This document shows, piece by piece, positions 1 through 20,978 of a DNA stretch of 64,000 nucleotides. The notes under the pieces are model-generated. The model was not told the origin of the DNA. It did no database searches and worked only from the letters and a program-made list of their open reading frames with translations. The position numbers were made by a program, and so were the translations under genes. This DNA comes from Cyanidioschyzon merolae (lineage: Eukaryota): NCBI GenBank assembly GCA_000091205.1, contig AP006488.2; one strand, given 5' to 3'. Position 1 is the stretch's first letter, and the number at the start of each line of letters is the position of its first letter.

Positions 1-27
1 CCCCATTCCCCCCATTCCCCCCATTCC
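1..27. repeat. Telomere-like C-rich short tandem repeat (CCCCATT / CCCCCCATT, 3 units) at the window edge
   Basis: The sequence 'ccccatt cccccc att cccccc att cc' is read directly at positions 1-27. The C-rich strand runs 5'->3' at a left end, which is the expected telomere orientation. Only about three units are present, and the following 3 kb is lower GC with no convincing genes. Confidence 0.3.
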
Positions 28-3336: not shown

Positions 3337-5520
3337 TCAGCAGGCAGCAGATATAACACTTACGCGAGCCTTCGTTAAAACACGTGCTGCACTCGTCCAA
3401 ATGTGATAGAGCCTTTCTGCATACGGCATGATACCCACAATACCCCCTGTGCCGAGCCCTGATGTCCATACCTTGCGCAGAGCATCGACCCGCGCAGGCC
3501 ACAACACTGCATGGGCCACGGCATGCGATGCGTACGTCCCGTAGCAGCTCACGAGAACACCGTCGACCGCAAGGCGCCCTGAGCGAGTCAACGGCGCATA
3601 GAGACCATTGTGCGTAACTAAAGTCTCGATTGCCACTACGGGGTCCGGCAGGTGCGCAGCAACGTCCAGCAGAGCGTCGCCAACGCGGATATCTTCCGCG
3701 AAAACTGCCACAACGGCGGTGGTACCCAACTCAAGGCTCCGACGTATGTGCTTCTGCTGCTGCTGCTTCTGTGAAATACACGAGAAAGCGGTCGTCATAC
3801 CGTAAAAGTCTCTAGAGTGTTCGATCATTCGATATACCAGATGCTGTCTCGTCAGACGCAGCTGCTTTCCGGAACGCGTCTTGATCGCAAGAATCTCTGC
3901 AGTAGCGCCGGCCTCGTTATGCAACCATCCTAGTACACTATCTTCGACCAGTTGCCCGCGCCCATTGACGCCCATTACGGCCATACCTGATCGAAGCTCG
4001 CTTATCTGCAGATGGTTGCCCAGACCATCGATGAGCACCGAGGCATCCGCGGGGAAGCAGACCGCAGAGCCTTCGCCTACAGCGGTCTGCGTCACATTTG
4101 TCGTTGCCGACGGTTCTGCAGTAACGGAGGGCGTCGGTGATGCCGTCGGAGTCGGTGTTGGTGTCGGCATAGGCGTCGGTGTTGCGATGTATAATGTGAA
4201 GAGATCGTTATAGCTACCGGAGCTGCCTTGACCTCCGAATAGAACCGGGTCGTTTTGATCGGTATCCCAAAGAACTGCACCGTATCGCGGAGGTGGAAGC
4301 GTTGTATTGCTTGTCTTGTTAAGCTCGCCGTAACTATATGCTCCATCCGTTGTATTGTCACCGTCTACCCAAGTCCATTCAAGACTCGTTATATTGAACG
4401 TCCACAGGTCGTTGCAGAAACCGGGTGAACTACCGCCGAAGAGATACAGGGTGTTCGTCGAGTCTGCAAATCCAGAAGAGCCAGCTCTGTACCCCGGAGT
4501 GTTGCTCGATGACGGCACTCCTTTCTCGCCGTATACTGCCCCATCCAAACCAACACTGTGATTTCCAGACATCCAAGTCCATTCTTTGGAGCTGATGTTG
4601 TACAGCCATAAATCATTGAGAAAGCCGCCATTTCCGTCAATCTGTCCATCACCGCCAAAGAGCCAAAAGTTCCCATCAAGGTCTCGCCACCATGTGGCTC
4701 CGAGACGTCCAGCGGGATAATTGCTCGGCGATGCCTGGCGAAACGTACCATAGCTTCCAGAGGGATTCTGCTGTTGAGTGCCACCTATCCAGCTCCATTC
4801 GTTGGTCACTGTGCTGTACTGCCACAAGTCACCGTAAAAAGGACCACTAGGATAAAATCCACCAAAGAGATAAAACTGGCCATCCAATCCAACCCAGGTC
4901 GCGGGTTGGAAACGAGCGCCAGGCGTGTTGCTTGAAGACGACTTCCCAAGAGGACCATATGTCGGGGGAACATTGGTCTTGCTGGATCCCTGCACCCAGG
5001 TCCACTCGCCCGACGATACATTATACATCCACATATCACTATAGCCCGAGTTCAAATTCCAGCCTCCATATAACCAAAGGTTTCCGTTGCTGTCACTCCA
5101 AGCAGCGGATTCCGTCCTCGAAGGCGGATAGTTGCTCTTGTTGGGAACTCCGAGGGAGCCGTATACCCCTCCAGAGTTGAGGGATGCAGAGCCTCCAACC
5201 CAGGTCCAAGAGAACGTGCTCAGATTGTAGTTCCAGAGATCACCGAAGACGTCTCTCAAGTCGCTGCCACCACCAAACAACCAGAGCACCCCGTCAGCGC
5301 CGGTCCAGAAGACCGCACCGTACCGCGCCGGAGGCACGTTGCTGGTGTTCCGCACACCCTGAACACCGTAGCTACCTGAACTGCCGGTAGAGTTACTGCC
5401 ACCGATCCAGGTCCATAAAAAAGTATCTTCGGAGGACAAAACTCCACGAACTGTGTGTGTGCCCGACACAACCAATACTATAACCAGGAGTCTCACAATA
5501 GAAAAATACCTTTTTCGCAT
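3337..5520 (-). CDS. Secreted Kelch-repeat (beta-propeller) protein with a Pro/Thr-rich linker and a C-terminal Hedgehog/intein-type Hint autoprocessing domain
   Basis: The 727-aa ORF is intact. Its N-terminus has a hydrophobic signal-peptide-like segment (MRKRYFSIVRLLVIVLVVSGTHTVRG). At least six repeats show the Kelch signature (LWLFGG ... NDLW/GDLW ... W.W). A PT linker (PTPMPTPTPTPTASPTPS) follows, then Hint motifs: 'G..AVCFPADASVLIDG' (Cys-1 block), 'TRQHLV' (TxxH) and 'LVTHNGLYAPLTRSGRLAVDGVLVSCYGTYASHAVAHAV' (C-terminal Hint block). Confidence 0.75.
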   Translation of the reverse strand: MRKRYFSIVRLLVIVLVVSGTHTVRGVLSSEDTFLWTWIGGSNSTGSSGSYGVQGVRNTSNVPPARYGAVFWTGADGVLWLFGGGSDLRDVFGDLWNYNLSTFSWTWVGGSASLNSGGVYGSLGVPNKSNYPPSRTESAAWSDSNGNLWLYGGWNLNSGYSDMWMYNVSSGEWTWVQGSSKTNVPPTYGPLGKSSSSNTPGARFQPATWVGLDGQFYLFGGFYPSGPFYGDLWQYSTVTNEWSWIGGTQQQNPSGSYGTFRQASPSNYPAGRLGATWWRDLDGNFWLFGGDGQIDGNGGFLNDLWLYNISSKEWTWMSGNHSVGLDGAVYGEKGVPSSSNTPGYRAGSSGFADSTNTLYLFGGSSPGFCNDLWTFNITSLEWTWVDGDNTTDGAYSYGELNKTSNTTLPPPRYGAVLWDTDQNDPVLFGGQGSSGSYNDLFTLYIATPTPMPTPTPTPTASPTPSVTAEPSATTNVTQTAVGEGSAVCFPADASVLIDGLGNHLQISELRSGMAVMGVNGRGQLVEDSVLGWLHNEAGATAEILAIKTRSGKQLRLTRQHLVYRMIEHSRDFYGMTTAFSCISQKQQQQKHIRRSLELGTTAVVAVFAEDIRVGDALLDVAAHLPDPVVAIETLVTHNGLYAPLTRSGRLAVDGVLVSCYGTYASHAVAHAVLWPARVDALRKVWTSGLGTGGIVGIMPYAERLYHIWTSAARVLTKARVSVISAAC

Positions 5521-6201: not shown

Positions 6202-7638
6202 TCATACTGAAGCACTTGCTGAGGCATGCGTCAAGGTCGACACCGATACCGACGCACTTGGAGACGCAGTTGCAGTCGCAATAACGGCACTCGGAGACCG
6301 TGTAGCACTAAACACCACACACTGCCTGTTGATGCACTCCTCGCCAGAGCGGCAGCAACGCACCTTGTTCACAAGGTTGTCCGAAGGCATCAGGTAGGTC
6401 CCGGACTGAACTGTAGGGTCCTTGCATACACAGAATGACGGCAACGGCACCTGTCGCTGCTGCTGCTGCTGCTGCTGTTGCACGGTATTGCTGTTGCTGA
6501 ACGGGTTTGACGTGCAGTTCTCCATCTCGGCGTTGCAGCGCTCCGGGCCGCACGGAATATACGTCGAGTTCGATACGTTGCCGGTCGTGCTGTTCAGCGA
6601 GTTCGAGACGTACCCATACGCCTGACAAACATACTCGGTAACCGGCTGGGAGCACTCGTTGCCGGGCCCCAGGCAGCAACCAGCCTCCAGACACTGCTGC
6701 GGCGGGTAGCTCGTGCGCTGCGTCCCGTGCTGCTCTCCGTAAAGGACCGTGTTCAGCAGACGCACAAACTGGTTATTGTTGATGTTATTGTTCAGCTGCT
6801 GGTTCTGATTCACCGCGTTCGTGCACGGCTGGCGCTCAAACTCGCCCACCGCGCACGTCTTCTCGGGCTGGAAGCAGTACGGGTTCGACGCAAAGTCGCT
6901 CTGCTGCTTGCCGTTCTGCACCCACTGGTTCTGCGCCTGCGAGTCGTAGCAGCAGCCCTGGGCATAGCACGTAAACTGGTTGATACCCGCGTTGCCGCAC
7001 GGCTGGCGCTGCGCTCCCGGTGACGGGCAGACGGGTACTGGTGCCTGCACCTCCTGCAGCGCTACAGAGGCCTGCGGTGCATGGTTGATGTCGTAGTAGC
7101 ACCAGGGTGCCAGGATGCCGTTCGCTGTGGGCTGCCAGCAGCATCCCGGTATCGCAGTGCACTCGTCGGGGTAGATGTAGCTCCAGCCGCAGGTGACGCG
7201 CTGCGTCACTTCAACAGCGCTGCACGCCGCTGAGACGCTCTTCAGGGTGCACGCGTTCGTCTGGGAGTTGAAGCAGCACCCGACTTGCTCGTAAGCGTCC
7301 TGGTTGATGCACTGTCCTGGAGATCCGCAGAGCTCATTGGAGCAGATGGGGGTAGGCGTCCGCGAAGTTTTTGGTGTTGGAGTAGGGAATGCTTTCCTCA
7401 ATGCAAACACATCATTGAGAAAGTCACTGCCGCTCGTGTTTATGTATCCAATTCCAACAAATACGATCGGATCAGTTCTACTAGTGTCCCAGAAAGCTGA
7501 TCCATAGCGAGTACTTGGTACACTATTCGGGCCTGACTCGCTCAATGCCCCATATACTGCTGGAGTATTCACTACCGAGCTTCCATTAATCCATACCCGT
7601 TGACCCAGTTTGATATCGAATACCCACAGATCGTTCAA
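6202..7638 (-). CDS. N-terminally truncated paralog of the Kelch protein carrying tandem trefoil (P-type)-like cysteine-rich domains and a polyQ tract; gene fragment or exon
   Basis: The 478-aa ORF has no ATG start; the first in-frame codon is TTG, preceded by a stop. Its N-terminus (NDLWVFD ... TPTPKTSRTPTP) parallels the last Kelch blade and PT linker of the 3337..5520 protein. It then carries trefoil-type motifs, for example 'CSAVEVTQRVTCGWSYIYPDECTAIPGCCWQPTANGILAPWCYYD' and 'CPSPGAQRQPCGNAGINQFTCYAQGCCYD...NPYCF'. A polyQ run (QQQQQQQQRQ) is present, encoded by (CTG)n on the plus strand. Confidence 0.45.
   Translation of the reverse strand: MNDLWVFDIKLGQRVWINGSSVVNTPAVYGALSESGPNSVPSTRYGSAFWDTSRTDPIVFVGIGYINTSGSDFLNDVFALRKAFPTPTPKTSRTPTPICSNELCGSPGQCINQDAYEQVGCCFNSQTNACTLKSVSAACSAVEVTQRVTCGWSYIYPDECTAIPGCCWQPTANGILAPWCYYDINHAPQASVALQEVQAPVPVCPSPGAQRQPCGNAGINQFTCYAQGCCYDSQAQNQWVQNGKQQSDFASNPYCFQPEKTCAVGEFERQPCTNAVNQNQQLNNNINNNQFVRLLNTVLYGEQHGTQRTSYPPQQCLEAGCCLGPGNECSQPVTEYVCQAYGYVSNSLNSTTGNVSNSTYIPCGPERCNAEMENCTSNPFSNSNTVQQQQQQQQRQVPLPSFCVCKDPTVQSGTYLMPSDNLVNKVRCCRSGEECINRQCVVFSATRSPSAVIATATASPSASVSVSTLTHASASASV
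6455..6478. repeat. (CTG/CAG)n microsatellite inside the coding region (polyQ)
   Basis: 'gctgctgctgctgctgctgttg' read directly in the sequence. Confidence 0.8.
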
Positions 7639-8281
7639 ACGACTGCAAGTGCGCTTCTATTGCCGTACCCCTCAAAGCAAAATGAGTTACAGATTACCCA
7701 AATAAACACGCTCTGCCCTCTTCAACGACCTCAGTTAGCATTCTCTGGCGCATTCGATGCGAAGTAGGTCATAGCTTTAGCTATATTAATCACTACTGCA
7801 GTACGCTTTATGACTTGCGAAGCAATTTTGGTTCTCCACATCAGGAGGAGTGCCCACCCATCCGTTCAATATCCGATCGTGACTGTGGGATGCCATCTCA
7901 TCGGTACGCTGTTGCTCCCACATGCGTCTTTGAAGCAGCGGTCTGCGCTTTGAAGGCGCATCTCATTTTCATCACTAACAAACCTTAGACAGGGGCCAAG
8001 ATAGTCGACTTGAGGCCTCGCCGCCGCAACGCCTGGTCGATCAGATCAAGACTCAGTTTCTATTGCTGATCTGCCGTGTCGATTTCGTACGTTAGTTCAA
8101 TAACCTGCGGTTTCGTGTTCTCTCGACCTTCCGTATATTAGCCACGCCACTGATAATACGAGCCCGAGTCAGAGAACTGCCCCTGGGTCGCCACTTCGGC
8201 TACGCGGCGGTCAACCTCATCATTCGGAACGTACTGCCTAGTGATGTACTTCTGAACAAGCGGGAAGAATACGTAGCGGAA

Positions 8282-9196
8282 TCAGCCACGCTTTTCGCGG
8301 AAGAGGTTGCTTTCGGCGACACATCCCGGGAAAATCGCCACAGAGGTCACCCCGTCGCGGCCGTATCGATCACTGAGCGCCTTCATTGTCAACAAGTTCT
8401 CGGCTTTGGCGTCTTTGAAAGCTTTTGTGGGCTCAAACGGGCCACTTTCTACCATGTCCGTCGTCTGCGGATCAAGCCCCGCGGCTAGGCCAGATATATC
8501 CCCGAGACGAGCCTGCGGGGGGATCTTTCCCGGCAGCGAATTCGGCGAGTGGGTCTGAGTCGTCAGAAACACAATGTGCCTGCGCGATATTTTCATCTTC
8601 GGCAACAGCTCCCGACAGAGAAGCAAATGGCTCAGATGGCAAACCTGCATAGTTTCCTCGATGCCGTCCACCCTGAAACGCGGTTTCTTGTCCCGCGGAT
8701 GCCATATTGTGGCATTGCAGATCAGGGTATCCAGGTGATCGACGCGCGCCACACTTGACAGCTCTCTTACAAACTTCAACACAGAGGCGAAATCAGCCAT
8801 ATCACAATGCAGCACTGTATAGGCGTCCTTTGGAAGGTTTACGCTATTCGCTGCGCGTTCCGCCAGGTCGACGTCACGACTTGCCATGACGATGTGCCCG
8901 TTGCCCTTGTTGATCAGAGCGCGAGCTGCATACAGACCGACCCCAGAGGACGCGCCAGTGATCACGGCGATCTGCGACTGTTTCGGGCCCATACGAAGAT
9001 GCAGCGCGTGGTGCCGGCGCGCTACAGGCGAGCGCTGCACCGCCAAGGGAAGCGGATGCTGACAGTGGTGACAATGTCCAGCTGCGAAGCACCCATCACG
9101 TGCGGTACGTAGCGGGAACGGTGCTCGAGTTGCAGCGCGCGCGCGAACAATGTGTCTTTCCTGGTACAACGGGACAAAAACGAAAAGAGCTTGCAT
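8282..9196 (-). CDS. Light-dependent protochlorophyllide oxidoreductase (POR)-like short-chain dehydrogenase whose catalytic Tyr is replaced by Phe
   Basis: The ORF encodes 304 aa. It has the SDR Rossmann motif 'ITGASSGVG'. Blocks align closely to LPOR: 'YTVLHCDMADFASV', 'LICNATIWHPRDKKPRFRVDGIEETMQVCHLSHLLL', and the POR-specific loop 'GKIPPQARLGDISGLAAGLDPQ...'. The tail 'LLTMKALSDRYGRDGVTSVAIFPGCVAESNLFREK' also matches. The YxxxK motif reads 'FKDAK' where POR has 'YKDSK'. A 68-aa N-terminal extension may be a targeting peptide, or the start is the internal 'MGPKQSQ'. Confidence 0.7.
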   Translation of the reverse strand: MQALFVFVPLYQERHIVRARAATRAPFPLRTARDGCFAAGHCHHCQHPLPLAVQRSPVARRHHALHLRMGPKQSQIAVITGASSGVGLYAARALINKGNGHIVMASRDVDLAERAANSVNLPKDAYTVLHCDMADFASVLKFVRELSSVARVDHLDTLICNATIWHPRDKKPRFRVDGIEETMQVCHLSHLLLCRELLPKMKISRRHIVFLTTQTHSPNSLPGKIPPQARLGDISGLAAGLDPQTTDMVESGPFEPTKAFKDAKAENLLTMKALSDRYGRDGVTSVAIFPGCVAESNLFREKRG

Positions 9197-10665: not shown

Positions 10666-13166
10666 ATGAAAAAGCAAGTCCACGATCCTGAAGCGCCATT
10701 GTCGCCGGCTGCCAGAAAAACAAATACAGTGCCGAGTCCCGACGAAGAGCAAAAGAAAAAGAAGCAAAGGGGGAGGCCCTATGTCGATCGCGGCAAGAAA
10801 GACGACTGTACGACGAGATAGTGTTGAACGCCTGACTTCTTAAACATATCAAGGATCCCTACAGGGAAAAGTTGCGAGACGCTATCGAAAACCGTGTCGA
10901 CTCGTACTCCAAGAGTCTTTTCAAGGCTTCGTCAGGACTGATGCATTTGGCGAGGGAGATGTATCGCGACGTGACGGACATGGCAACCATCGAGATTCCG
11001 GACGAGTTCTTCGACAAGACCTTTATTCGTCACCTGATGCATGGTACAGCGGGAACGTGGAGGGAAAACGTGCTAGTGCATGTTCTCCACGAAAACTTCG
11101 CGGAATTCCGCTTCGAGGGTGCTCGGTACAGCGGTGACTCGCATATTTACACATACGGGGCAATGAAGTTCATCACGAACCTGAAGAACCATTTGACAGA
11201 GAACCTCGAATGTTTCATGATACGCACCGCGTTTGCACTCTACCCGGGCATCTCTCGCAAGGGGATATGGTCGATTATCAATGGCATCACGAACGATCGC
11301 AAGCATGAAGGTGAGGTCGAATTCGTCGGCAAGAAGACGTCAAAAGGGAGCACGAATGAAGCTTCTGCAACCCGTGCGGCTATACAAGAGCACCGTGCAG
11401 TCTTGGGGCTGGTGAATCCAACAGACAAGATATCAAAGTTGGAGAAAGATAAGGAAAGATACTATCGCCTCTTCCTGCGGCATTTTGTGTTTCTGGACCG
11501 AGAGCTCGAACGCAAAGTGGAGATGAAGCTGAGTGAAGAGACAAATGAAGAGTGGGAAAGACGGAAGGCTTTCCTAATGGGGAAGCGCTTCGACGTGGTT
11601 CCGTTGTGCAACATCAAGGCACATTTTGTGACTATCGACTCCGCGGTCCTTTACGGCATCATAAAGGAGATCAGTGCGGAGTTCAATATTCGTAGGGAGC
11701 ACTTCACCGGCGAAAACCAGGAGACGTACTGGAAGAAGATCTTCGGTTTCAAACGTCTCAAAACGAGCAAGCAAAAGGTATTCGCTGGGATGATTGAAAC
11801 CGATGGAGTAAACGTGTGTGTACACTATCGGCGGCTGAAGCAAGATCGTCCAGTCCCACTCCCCGCTGCGCCCTCGATGAAGCATGAAGATGAGAATGAG
11901 TCGGATCCTGCCACGCAGGAGGTAGAGGATACTGATCTTGTCGTTGGCGTGACGAACGATGAAGATGAGCAGGAGGCTGGTCCTGCGACGCAGGAGGTGG
12001 AGGATAACGAGCTTGCCGTTGACGCAGCGGAGCATGAAGAAAACCAAGAGGCGGGTCCTGCGACGCAGGCGGCGGAGGATAACGACTTTATCGTTGACGT
12101 GACGAAGGATGATCATGGGAAGGAAGCGGATCCTGTGATGCAGGAGGTGCATGATGACGCCTTTATGGTTGGCGCGGCGAAGCATGAAGAAAACAAGAAG
12201 GTGGGCCCTGCGACCCAGAAAGTGCAGGATAAGGACTTTGTCGTTGGCGCGGACCCTCGGAATACGAATATCATTACCATCGCAGCACCGAAGCGTGCGG
12301 AAGATGGTACTGATGGTAACTTACGTCAGAAAGACATGCGTCTTTTGAGGTTCACGAGAGAGAGATACTATCGAGAATCGGGAATCATGAATGCGAGGAA
12401 ACAATTCGAGACTTGGAAGTCAGGAATGAAAGATCACCTGGAAGCTTCGAGCTAGGTGACGAGCCGAGGAGCGCACTTTGAAGCTTTTCGGAAAGTCATG
12501 GAAGGTCGCATGACGCACTGGGATACGCTGTGGAAGGAGTATACCAAGCCCCGGTGGGCTCGTTTCCGAATGAATTTGTATTGTGGGAAGCAGCGGGCGG
12601 TGGCGAATTTTTTCAATCAGTTGAATGCCTTGATGGACGATAACAGTCAGAGGCTCGTAGTAGCGTATGGGGCAGGGCGCTGGAACACTCAAAAAGGAAC
12701 TTCGCCAGCTCCAACGACGAGGGTGTACAAGGAGTGCGCACGTCGTTTCGTTACAATACGGGTAGACGAGTTCCGAACGTCCTATACTCACCATGAGCTG
12801 GGTTGTACACTTCAGAGGGTGAAGATGGAAAAGTACCAGAAGAGCCCTGAGGAAATAGCAAAGTACGGACCGCTGACGGAAGAGCAAATGGAAAGGAGGG
12901 CGAAAGTTCGTGGACTACTCGCATTAGTAAGTACAACCAGTGATGGCAAGAAACGGATGGATTTCGTGAACCGAGAGTTTAATGCCGCAATCAATATAAG
13001 GAGATTGGCGGTGCTAGAGAAAAGACCTCCAGAGTGGACAAGAGAGAACTTTATTGGACAATCACTCAAAGTCGATTTATATGAGAAAGAATTGGAATCA
13101 GTAGTAGGTGACCGGTCCAAAAAGGCGGCGAGGCGTCTCCACGTCAGTTGGGGACGTTTTGTCTAG
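10666..13166 (+). pseudogene. TnpB/Fanzor-like nuclease ORF of copy 1, disrupted: frameshift and TGA near the N-terminus and an in-frame TAG at 12453..12455
   Basis: Two adjacent ORFs (10872..12455 and 12456..13166) lie in the same frame and are separated only by a TAG. The sibling copy has GAG at that position. The N-terminal exon-like ATG at 10666 is out of frame with the main ORF, and a TGA lies in the continuing frame. The RuvC-III 'NAAINI' motif is intact. Confidence 0.6.
11898..12257 (+). repeat. In-frame tandem array (5 x about 69-72 bp) duplicating the acidic '[14 protein letters not shown]' segment that ends in the RuvC-I motif
   Basis: The protein repeats are '[25 protein letters not shown]', '[25 protein letters not shown]', '[25 protein letters not shown]', '[26 protein letters not shown]' and '[19 protein letters not shown]'. 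Copies 3 and 5 carry a single unit. Confidence 0.7.
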
Positions 13167-19517: not shown

Positions 19518-20978
19518 TCAGGCACCGCATGTGTTCGTGATCTCCACGCGACCGTGAAAGCTTGAGCAGACTACGCGCGATTGATGCAAACTTGTCGCCG
19601 CAATTTCTGGCAACGCTTCAGGGTCCCCACGTGCGCCCGTCGCTGCAGTTATGGTCGCCAGCTCGGCGCCTGACTGCACAGTGCCCGGTAGATTTCTCTT
19701 CTGGCAAATTTGCTCACGCCATAACACCAGCATTCGTCGGATATCTTCCAGATCGCTCATGGTGGCGGAGGCGCGCTCGCCGCGAATGAAAGCACGAACA
19801 AGCTCGAGATGCTTGCGTTCGGAGGCCGCCTCCAGCTCGCCTCCTTCCGGTGTATCTTGAGGACATCGCTCAGGCATGCCTTCCATGATCCAGCGACGCA
19901 GCAGCATCAATTCATATCGATCCAGCCACTCTGCTAGTGATTTCTGCGATACGGATGTATCCGAAGCGGTTCCCCGGTCCGGCGACTGCGATACTATAAC
20001 CGGGATATGGCGCAGCTTCTCAAATTCGGACCATCGCTCATCGTAGACCGCGTTTGAGACAATGCTCTTGTCTTCCTTCAGGCTGGATATCATTTGCTCG
20101 TGATATTCCAGTCCGAGAAATTCATATTGCCAGACGAATTTAGCTCCATTACGCCCATTCCTGTCACAGATTTTCTTCGAATCTTGTGGAGCGATACAGA
20201 GAACCTCCGCAAGGCCAGCGATGCCTATTCGCGACCCCCGCTTGATCGGCGCGCGCCCACAAGCCTCGGCTGTTGTGCGGCCCGTGCATGCGAAGAATAA
20301 CTGCACCAGATACAGTGCAGCTATAAAACCTCCAACGAATAGGCAGTAGACACCAACAAGAAGCGCCAAAATAGCCGGAAAAGGGCGATGCACCAACGCT
20401 GCCCTGAAACCGCTGGTGCCGCTGCCGAGCTGTTCACTTTCGAAGCCAATCTCAAGGAAACAAACAACAACGCCATACACGAGCAGTAGCAGGATTGAGA
20501 TGAGATACCCCAGAAAGTAGGGGTGGTTGCGCGCCCCCACGCACTGGCCAAGCCAGACGCAGTGGTGGTCCAGGCGAACACAGCAGCGCTCGCATACATA
20601 GCAATGCTTGGTTCGTGGTGGCCGGAACACCCGGCAGTTTTCACAGTACTTCAGGGAGAACTCCTCTCCTGTCTTCCTGTCACGAACTCGAATGTTCATT
20701 GGAAGACCCGTGGAGGCCTCCCGGTACAGCAGCTCTTTTTCGTGTTCAGCGCTGTAAGGGACCCAGCCCGGGTCAGTAAAGGCGGCCACGAGGAAGCATG
20801 TCCACGCGCAAACAGCCAAAAAGATCCCTACGGCAAGCACAGACCAGCCGCGCGGCGCCTTGTCCGCACAAAAATATGGTGCTACACCAGCAAAGAAGAC
20901 GATCTGCGGTACCGCAGTGGCAAAAGCAGCGACTACAAACAGCCGTCGCTTCGAAGGCACGAGACTTGACAGAGGCAT
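19518..20978 (-). CDS. DHHC-type zinc-finger protein S-acyl (palmitoyl) transferase
   Basis: The 486-aa intact ORF contains 'CENCRVFRPPRTKHCYVCERCCVRLDHHCVWLGQCVGARNHPYF' (DHHC-CRD). Hydrophobic TM segments flank the domain on both sides. Confidence 0.75.
   Translation of the reverse strand: MPLSSLVPSKRRLFVVAAFATAVPQIVFFAGVAPYFCADKAPRGWSVLAVGIFLAVCAWTCFLVAAFTDPGWVPYSAEHEKELLYREASTGLPMNIRVRDRKTGEEFSLKYCENCRVFRPPRTKHCYVCERCCVRLDHHCVWLGQCVGARNHPYFLGYLISILLLLVYGVVVCFLEIGFESEQLGSGTSGFRAALVHRPFPAILALLVGVYCLFVGGFIAALYLVQLFFACTGRTTAEACGRAPIKRGSRIGIAGLAEVLCIAPQDSKKICDRNGRNGAKFVWQYEFLGLEYHEQMISSLKEDKSIVSNAVYDERWSEFEKLRHIPVIVSQSPDRGTASDTSVSQKSLAEWLDRYELMLLRRWIMEGMPERCPQDTPEGGELEAASERKHLELVRAFIRGERASATMSDLEDIRRMLVLWREQICQKRNLPGTVQSGAELATITAATGARGDPEALPEIAATSLHQSRVVCSSFHGRVEITNTCGA

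Follow-up and report, generated by a model that had tools for sequence, protein, structure and literature searches.

The gene at positions 3337..5520 of the minus strand in a 64,000-nucleotide stretch of Cyanidioschyzon merolae DNA (contig AP006488.2; this whole stretch is called the window here) is an intact member of the subtelomeric Kelch+Hog ('K+H') family of C. merolae, in which a Kelch beta-propeller is fused to a Hedgehog-type Hint module. It consists of one uninterrupted open reading frame (ORF) that runs from ATG to stop, with 727 codons followed by the stop at 3337-3339, and its translation shows 100% identity at 100% coverage to a protein of C. merolae 10D (BAM79404.1 / XP_005535690.1 / UniProt M1V723) that sits on a 536,163-bp record and is named "similar to hedgehog protein". 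The contiguous ORF accounts for the whole annotated protein of 727 aa, and the gene is therefore intronless, which agrees with what a preliminary description, made from the letters of the window, had said of it. That a Kelch + Hint/Hog gene is present here is confirmed as real and far beyond chance, and the architecture, the fold, the conservation of catalytic residues, the chromosomal position and the family membership of its product are all shown by the results below.

The fusion, the annotation of the gene, its position and its copy number are already known, and in this respect the finding adds little. The preliminary description did not recognise a Kelch propeller as the cargo of such a module and thereby implied that the combination was new; however, the gene has carried its hedgehog-like name since the genome project, and the fusion has been published as 'K+H' (PMC9812998) and as 'K + Hog' (PMC13353863). 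In the passages of Nozaki 2007 that deal with these genes, the subtelomeric "H" genes of C. merolae were mapped, and they adjoin the telomere together with trefoil and POR (protochlorophyllide reductase) genes. Cho 2023 (PMC9812998), in its account of subtelomeric genes, describes kelch fused to a trefoil or a hint domain as the commonest subtelomeric duplications of Cyanidiales, with the fusion made through a Thr/Pro/Ala-rich peptide and with 11 copies of 'K+H' in C. merolae. The corresponding passages of a Plant Cell 2026 paper (koag148, PMC13353863) speak of 'K + TFF' and 'K + Hog' and give 17 as the number of Hog genes in Cz. merolae; they report that in Cz. merolae and in Cc. yangmingshanensis these genes are expressed for the most part in haploid cells, which proteome data support in the case of Cc. 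yangmingshanensis. The catalogue of Hog proteins in Burglin 2008 includes some from red algae, with 0 occurrences each of C. merolae and Kelch. The window gene has all the features by which these accounts define the family, namely Kelch, a Thr/Pro/Ala linker, Hint, a subtelomeric site and multiple near-identical copies (its paralogs on other C. merolae chromosomes are at 89-91% identity), and against these descriptions we found no difference at the level of the gene.

Architecture and fold of the protein

The order of parts given in the preliminary description, a signal peptide followed by at least six Kelch blades, a PT-rich linker and a Hint domain, is borne out: there are exactly six blades, the N-terminus is signal-peptide-like, and every peptide string that had been quoted is present in the protein. 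When the protein was scanned against Pfam, Kelch families were found together with PF01079, the Hedgehog-type Hint family, which matched residues 485-707 with an E-value of 1.4e-31 and 110.2 bits compared to a curated cut-off of 29.7. This match spans profile positions 10-207 of 213, which means that the post-Hint region is included. The Hint core itself comprises residues 488-662 (3535..4059; all features of this gene are on the minus strand) and is placed by Pfam, by sequence search of the PDB, by alignments, by a structure model and by checked codon positions. A phmmer search of the PDB returned human Sonic hedgehog (SHH; 7e2i) at 1.9e-10 and also Drosophila Hedgehog-C entries, and in the phmmer alignment SAVCFP, LTRQHLV and VSCYG of the window protein pair with SGGCFP, LTAAHLL and ASCYA of SHH.

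In a first AlphaFold run on the whole protein the Hog half had a predicted local distance difference test (pLDDT) score that was mostly below 50-60, for which the shallow alignment in that half is the reason, and this model was used for the propeller only. When residues 482-727 were modelled by themselves, with 70 diverse Hog/Hh sequences in the alignment, the mean pLDDT was 81, with values above 90 in the Hint core and with a disordered Gln-rich insert at about residues 574-598. The top matches of this model among PDB structures in Foldseek were Drosophila Hedgehog 6TYY, with a template modelling (TM) score of 0.89 and a root-mean-square deviation (rmsd) of 2.2 A, and 1AT0 with a TM of 0.88, the rmsd of the two being 2.2-2.9 A. 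6TYY, the better of them, is the crystal structure of the D303H variant of the Drosophila protein. Inteins and bacterial intein-like (BIL) domains were weaker matches to the fold (TM 0.45-0.83). The Hint fold, the absence of which had been named as refuting the architecture, is therefore recovered by the profile and by the AlphaFold2/Foldseek comparison (TM 0.88-0.89).

Taken literally, the name "similar to hedgehog protein" and the Gene Ontology term 'protein splicing' would make this protein a true Hedgehog ligand or a protein-splicing intein, and this we find hardly credible. What such a reading shares with the data is the Hint fold only. All the animal Hh matches from our profile search have PF01085, whereas this family (HhN/Hedge) gives no match to the window protein, in which residues 31-447 are a Kelch propeller. 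As for an intein, there is no C-extein, as the protein ends 65 residues after the SCYG motif, and no Pfam family of inteins matches at E <= 0.1; moreover, the best fold matches are with Hedgehog-C while inteins and BIL domains come behind. The passages of PMC13353863 on these proteins have already reclassified the K + Hog proteins of Cz. merolae, which are without HhN, as non-Hh Hog in the sense of Burglin.

The propeller occupies residues 31-447 (4180..5430), as judged from Pfam, internal repeats, AlphaFold and Foldseek. Eight Pfam Kelch/propeller families match the protein and cover about residues 58-450, among them PF24681 (5.9e-35), Kelch_4 (2.1e-32), Kelch_3 (1e-21) and also Kelch_6, Kelch_1 and Kelch_2. 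The six repeats are 66-72 residues long, their W(T/S)W..G anchors are at residues 36, 105, 173, 242, 314 and 382, and every one of them has an (F/Y)GG doublet and a D(L/M)(W/F) strand. In the whole-protein model this part has a pLDDT above 90, and it resembles the six-bladed Kelch domains of LZTR1, KLHDC2 and KLHL2 with a target-normalised TM of about 0.8. Thus, by its six blades, its GG doublets, its conserved aromatic residues and the closed propeller that is predicted, it is a Kelch beta-propeller. The whole protein has 12 N-x-S/T sequons, of which 11 are within the propeller. The propeller is followed by a Pro/Thr/Ala-rich linker at residues 448-487 (4060..4179), whose end, ...GEGSAV, abuts the catalytic Cys. 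Of the 42 residues from 446 to 487, 12 are Thr, 9 are Pro and 6 are Ala, which agrees with the Thr/Pro/Ala linker in the family account of Cho 2023, and the linker is disordered in the whole-protein model (pLDDT <50).

At the N-terminus, residues 1-26 (MRKRYFSIVRLLVIVLVVSGTHTVRG; 5443..5520) are signal-peptide-like and are modelled as a helix at 2-20. The segment is basic and hydrophobic and it would fit a signal peptide, as judged from hydropathy and from the modelled helix. Residues 3-30 are the sole strongly hydrophobic stretch of the protein (Kyte-Doolittle score >1.4) and a second membrane segment is absent. Signal peptides have been annotated in related Kelch+trefoil (K+T) proteins, as described by Cho 2023 for those proteins. 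An N-terminal Cys that could be palmitoylated, as in Hedgehog, is absent behind the signal sequence.

Catalytic residues and the proposed processing

The residues on which Hedgehog-type processing depends were compared in two alignments, one of 13 cyanidiophyte K+H sequences with human SHH, and one made with phmmer from the Hog fragment, the listed Hog-domain representatives, the proteins P0043, P0148 and P0150 and the query, in which counts refer to the rows that cover a column. Cys488 (codon at 4057-4059) is the first Hint residue and pairs with the Cys of GCF in SHH, and this column is Cys in 124/124 rows. Thr557 (3850-3852) and His560 (3841-3843) of T-R-Q-H pair with TAAH of SHH and correspond to T326/H329 of Drosophila Hh, the columns being T/S and H (His72), respectively, in 149/149 rows each. 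Misalignment of Cys-1 or of TxxH had been named as a refuting result in the preliminary description; both are aligned and both are invariant in related Hog domains, with T or S at the first position of TxxH. Cys659 (3544-3546) of SCYG is the counterpart of C143/C400 and is Cys in 142/152 rows, and the S, C and Y of S658-C659-Y-G are invariant in the alignment of 70 Hog/Hh sequences. In the 13 cyanidiophyte copies, Cys488, His534, Thr557, His560 and Cys659 are all invariant.

The position of the general base, which is D46 in Hint numbering and D303 in Drosophila Hh, is His534 (3919-3921) in the window protein. Among the Hog relatives in the phmmer alignment this column is His in 85 rows vs Asp in 59, and His is therefore a common natural variant at this position. 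With His and not Asp at the general-base position, the window protein resembles the engineered D303H variant of Drosophila HhC, which kept its structure (rmsd 0.4 A), was active and accepted more sterols (review PMC9163320). The engineered 'base swap' of Drosophila Hedgehog thus appears, from these alignments, to mirror a widespread natural state.

After the Hint core, residues 663-727 (3340..3534), up to the protein end ...AAC, form a region that is like the adduct/sterol-recognition region of Hedgehog, as seen from conservation, from the model and from Pfam. In these 65 residues after SCYG the motifs AH..L(W)P.R and GI.PYA..LY are retained, and A669, H670, P675, R677, G696, Y700 and L704 stand in columns with full or at least 90% conservation in the 70 Hog/Hh sequences. 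These conserved columns indicate that the protein has a full Hog domain and not a bare Hint. The region is predicted as three helices. As a separate observation, an Ala-(Ala)-Cys C-terminus (window 3340-3348) is common to every K+H and Hog-only cyanidiophyte sequence that was aligned.

When compared to HhC (1AT0, 6TYY, PF01079), the window protein is alike in its Hint fold (TM 0.88-0.89), in Cys-1, TxxH and SCY(A/G), and in the post-Hint helical region with its AH...P.R and G..(W/P)YA..LY motifs; it is also like human SHH in that a variable loop is inserted where SHH has a Gly/Ser-rich loop. It differs in its cargo, which is a Kelch propeller with a mucin-like linker whereas that of HhC is the HhN signalling domain, and in having His at the general-base position where Hh has Asp, Val at -1 where Hh has Gly, and MPY where Hh has HWY. 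With the non-Hh Hog proteins of protists, red algae, mosses and nematodes (warthog, groundhog, hoglet) it shares the same modular design, in which a secreted N-terminal domain of another type is followed by Hint and an adduct-recognition region.

From these residues, from the model and by analogy with Hedgehog, we lean slightly towards a mechanism in which the protein cleaves itself at Val487|Cys488 and its glycosylated propeller becomes lipidated, probably by a sterol. The preliminary description gave a G|C bond as the cleavage site of Hog proteins, which is not what is found here, as the scissile bond would be that in GEGSAV|CFP. In the mechanism proposed, the precursor would enter the endoplasmic reticulum (ER) by means of its N-terminal signal sequence, the six-bladed propeller would be N-glycosylated there, and the Pro/Thr linker would probably be O-glycosylated. 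The Hog module would then act in cis: Cys488 would attack the carbonyl of Val487 and, assisted by Thr557/His560, bring about an N-to-S acyl shift that leads to a thioester, which would be resolved by a lipid nucleophile that is held by the C-terminal helices and activated by His534, most likely a membrane sterol. The products would be a Kelch-linker glycoprotein esterified with lipid at its C-terminus and a free Hog fragment of about 26 kDa, so that a glycosylated propeller on a mucin-like stalk might be displayed at the surface of the wall-less haploid cell. The Hedgehog biochemistry behind this three-step scheme (acyl shift, thioester resolution and release of Hog) has been summarised in PMC9163320. 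Since the protein has no other hydrophobic or membrane-spanning segment, it would be held at the membrane by the lipid adduct alone. Among possible nucleophiles a sterol seems the most likely, because the adduct region is conserved with Hedgehog, because this region is under constraint comparable to that on the Hint core (dN/dS of 0.21 vs 0.24), and because cyanidiophytes carry sterol-pathway genes (PMC10817344).

Several points weigh against this mechanism, and some of them concern the chemistry. The -1 residue is Val487, which is beta-branched (in some Cyanidiococcus copies it is Lys), and not Gly, which is the commonest residue at this position in the relatives (53/104 rows of the phmmer alignment); Val at -1 could slow or alter the acyl shift. 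In the sterol region the HWY motif of Hedgehog is MPY, and the helices of the adduct region have a pLDDT of only 55-83. The passages on this family in both PMC13353863 and PMC9812998 call its function unknown, and the literature, in the parts that bear on this family, is without biochemical evidence of cleavage or of an adduct for its non-metazoan Hog. A serious rival, possible but distinctly less probable in our estimate than sterol transfer, is self-cleavage without lipidation, in which water or a small thiol resolves the thioester, the cell secretes a soluble glycosylated propeller and disposes of the Hog fragment, and the C-terminal helices serve just for docking to the ER or membrane or for folding. 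In its favour, the thioester-forming catalytic set is intact; that HWY is not conserved (it is MPY here) also fits it, as does the fact that no adduct is given for any non-metazoan Hog in those parts of the literature. It does not account for the conservation of A669, H670, P675, R677, G696, Y700 and L704 across Hog/Hh or for the purifying selection on the adduct region, which is comparable to that on Hint. Nor does it explain why His534, which could act as a general base, is invariant in the 13 cyanidiophyte copies, as such a base is needed for transfer and not for the formation of the thioester (PMC9163320).

Other points against the mechanism concern the locus. The dN/dS among close copies is about 0.5, with few substitutions, the environmental K+H copies include pseudogenes, both neighbours in the subtelomeric element are decayed, and Mikulski et al. 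2017 (PMC5405695) report that K+H loci are marked by trimethylation of histone H3 at lysine 27 (H3K27me3) and moderately repressed. The same points speak for a reading in which the gene is a silenced or decaying subtelomeric duplicate without present function, with its ORF intact only through recent duplication or gene conversion: a K+T remnant that lacks its 5' part and a POR copy interrupted by in-frame stops share the terminal 9.2 kb with it, and the environmental copies have from one to at least five in-frame stops. We consider this improbable because the ORF of 727 codons is intact with every catalytic residue kept, because the dN/dS of the Hog module at longer range is 0.21-0.24, and because the variation between copies is patterned, being focused on one class of propeller loops and not uniform. 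Also, PMC13353863 reports expression of the Cz. merolae Hog genes, for the most part in haploid cells.

A demonstration of sterol transfer by this protein would establish, for the first time, that a Hog domain outside animals works in lipid transfer. Non-animal Hog domains have been catalogued since 2008, and the remaining value of this gene is as a test case for whether they hand their cargo over to a sterol or to some other adduct. Genetic work is feasible in C. merolae 10D, the family is compact, the catalytic set of this copy is full and the His is natural, and an experiment on autoprocessing and adduct formation would therefore be straightforward to design. The passages in which the published accounts describe the K+H family are without the His general base, the Val at -1 and the intact motifs of the adduct region; likewise absent from them are three points described below, namely that variation is focused on loops, that both neighbours are decayed and that the propeller has prokaryotic affinities.

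Relatives, variation and origin of the propeller

A word-indexed search with the Hog fragment found 8 close relatives, and other Hog proteins were reached by exhaustive representative and profile searches. The survey of relatives for the same architecture that the preliminary description had proposed was carried out on 147 of the 150 best listed representatives along with P0043, P0148 and P0150, out of 2042 at E <= 0.001, and among the Hog-domain representatives tested only a Cyanidiococcus protein carries the same Kelch domain. The Kelch+Hog combination thus appears to be lineage-restricted.

The long-range selection on the Hog module was estimated against a paralog type from a hot-spring metagenome contig that has about 50% protein identity to the window copy, and Hint gave a dN/dS of 0.24 and the adduct region one of 0.21. 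In this comparison the dS of the Kelch part was saturated, and the comparison with the metagenome copy L010 was frameshifted, so that the dN/dS values apply to the Hog module and to close copies. Among the environmental copies, L003 is intact at 93% identity, L004 (L004:1003-3186) has one in-frame stop at 88% identity, and L005 (L005:1400-3600) and L006, at 75% identity, have five or more. The five internal in-frame stops of L005 are at positions that are otherwise conserved, and its stop at codon 105 is shared by L006, L010 and L011. Pseudogenes are therefore present among these environmental copies.

Across eight close copies (the window copy and P0122, P0003, P0124, P0002, P0121, P0123 and P0125) the Kelch part is the most variable, with a mean pairwise identity of 0.90 compared to 0.94-0.97 elsewhere. 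The variation is concentrated in the loops that run from FGG to DLW, in which 33/53 residues vary vs 69/359 elsewhere (Fisher p = 4e-10). In Kelch domains such as that of Keap1 these loops, the B-C loops, contribute to the ligand-binding face. The loop-focused variation hints at a diversification of binding on one face of the propeller, and relaxed constraint on the loops is a simpler reading of it.

The nearest relatives of the propeller that were found outside cyanidiophytes are prokaryotic, with 36-43% identity over all six blades (loci L083-L117, L001 and L002). They come mainly from metagenome-assembled genomes (MAGs) of Acidobacteriaceae/Terracidiphilus, with some from Bacteroidota and Promethearchaeota MAGs, and for two of them a bacterial gene neighbourhood was confirmed. 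Among the top 120 whole-protein matches, the EukProt source tag was on C. merolae proteins only. This suggests that the propeller cargo may have been acquired by transfer from prokaryotes; both repeat number and the sharing of peptide words bias the searches behind it. The prokaryotic secreted Kelch propellers, often named 'N-acetylneuraminic acid mutarotase', share with the window protein the repeat consensus WTW..G...YG..G....N.PG.R....W.D..G.LWLFGG.....NDLW.Y; they differ in that they are without Hint and in that many have at least 12 blades or, as in Bacteroidota proteins of the type IX secretion system (T9SS), T9SS sorting domains.

For the role of the family and the origin of its cargo, the loop variation and the likeness of the propeller to prokaryotic ones offer modest new leads. 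Put together with the proposed processing they might describe a variable surface-protein system, which we regard as a rather doubtful extension. In such a system a propeller from acidophilic, Acidobacteriaceae-like prokaryotes (about 40% identity over six blades) would have been joined to an ancestral eukaryotic Hog module, with its natural His general base, that esterifies it with sterol, and the subtelomeric copies would diversify mainly in the loops after FGG to form a haploid coat. If this were true, the wall-less, gamete-like haploid cell would be coated with lipid-anchored glycoproteins that can change, and this coat would serve in recognition, in adhesion or in protection from acid.

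The chromosome end and the neighbouring genes

The window starts with CCCCATTCCCCCCATTCCCCCCATT, which is complementary to AATGGGGGG, the telomere repeat of C. merolae. Positions 1..27 were found by sequence search to consist of CCCCATT / CCCCCCATT units that are the complement of AATGGGGGG (the repeat unit as given in the telomere passages of Nozaki 2007), and AATGGGGGGAATGGGGGG is found on the minus strand at 8..25, where 0 occurrences would be expected by chance. As the window starts in telomere repeat, the 3' end of the gene is 3.3 kb from the left end of the chromosome.

Inward of the gene, on the minus strand at 6202..7638, Pfam and inspection of the reading frame identified a 5'-truncated K+T remnant that has the last Kelch blade only, a PT linker, two trefoil domains (PF00088 at 7.8e-13, in 2 stretches) and a Cys/Gln-rich tail. 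There is an in-frame stop directly upstream and no ATG ahead of the trefoil domains. The preliminary description had called this neighbour a paralog with different C-terminal modules; it is a 5'-truncated fragment and not a full gene. Next to it, at 8130..9196 (minus strand), Pfam and alignment to PORB revealed a POR-like gene with in-frame stops. Its ORF at 8282..9196 stops at 8282-8284, the POR homology continues in frame past a second stop, and the joined translation aligns with residues 43-322 of Arabidopsis PORB at an E-value of 1.4e-65 through two stops; it is likely a pseudogene or a truncated copy. The passages of Nozaki 2007 on chromosome ends describe 'PH elements' (POR + hedgehog) at eight of them, 6L among these, and the left end of the window with its H and P fits the description of such an element.

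From about 19 kb onwards the genes in the window are ordinary ones, including those for DHHC, PPDK, flavodoxin/FAD reductase, TruB and WLM proteins. The DHHC palmitoyltransferase at 19518-20978 was considered as a partner of the K+H protein and dismissed as unrelated, as there is no Cys at the N-terminus of that protein after the signal sequence; DHHC enzymes also work from the cytosolic side. A 527-aa ORF at 10872-12455 on the plus strand, inward of the subtelomeric element and ahead of the first housekeeping genes, has no Pfam match and has tandem acidic repeats in its second half.

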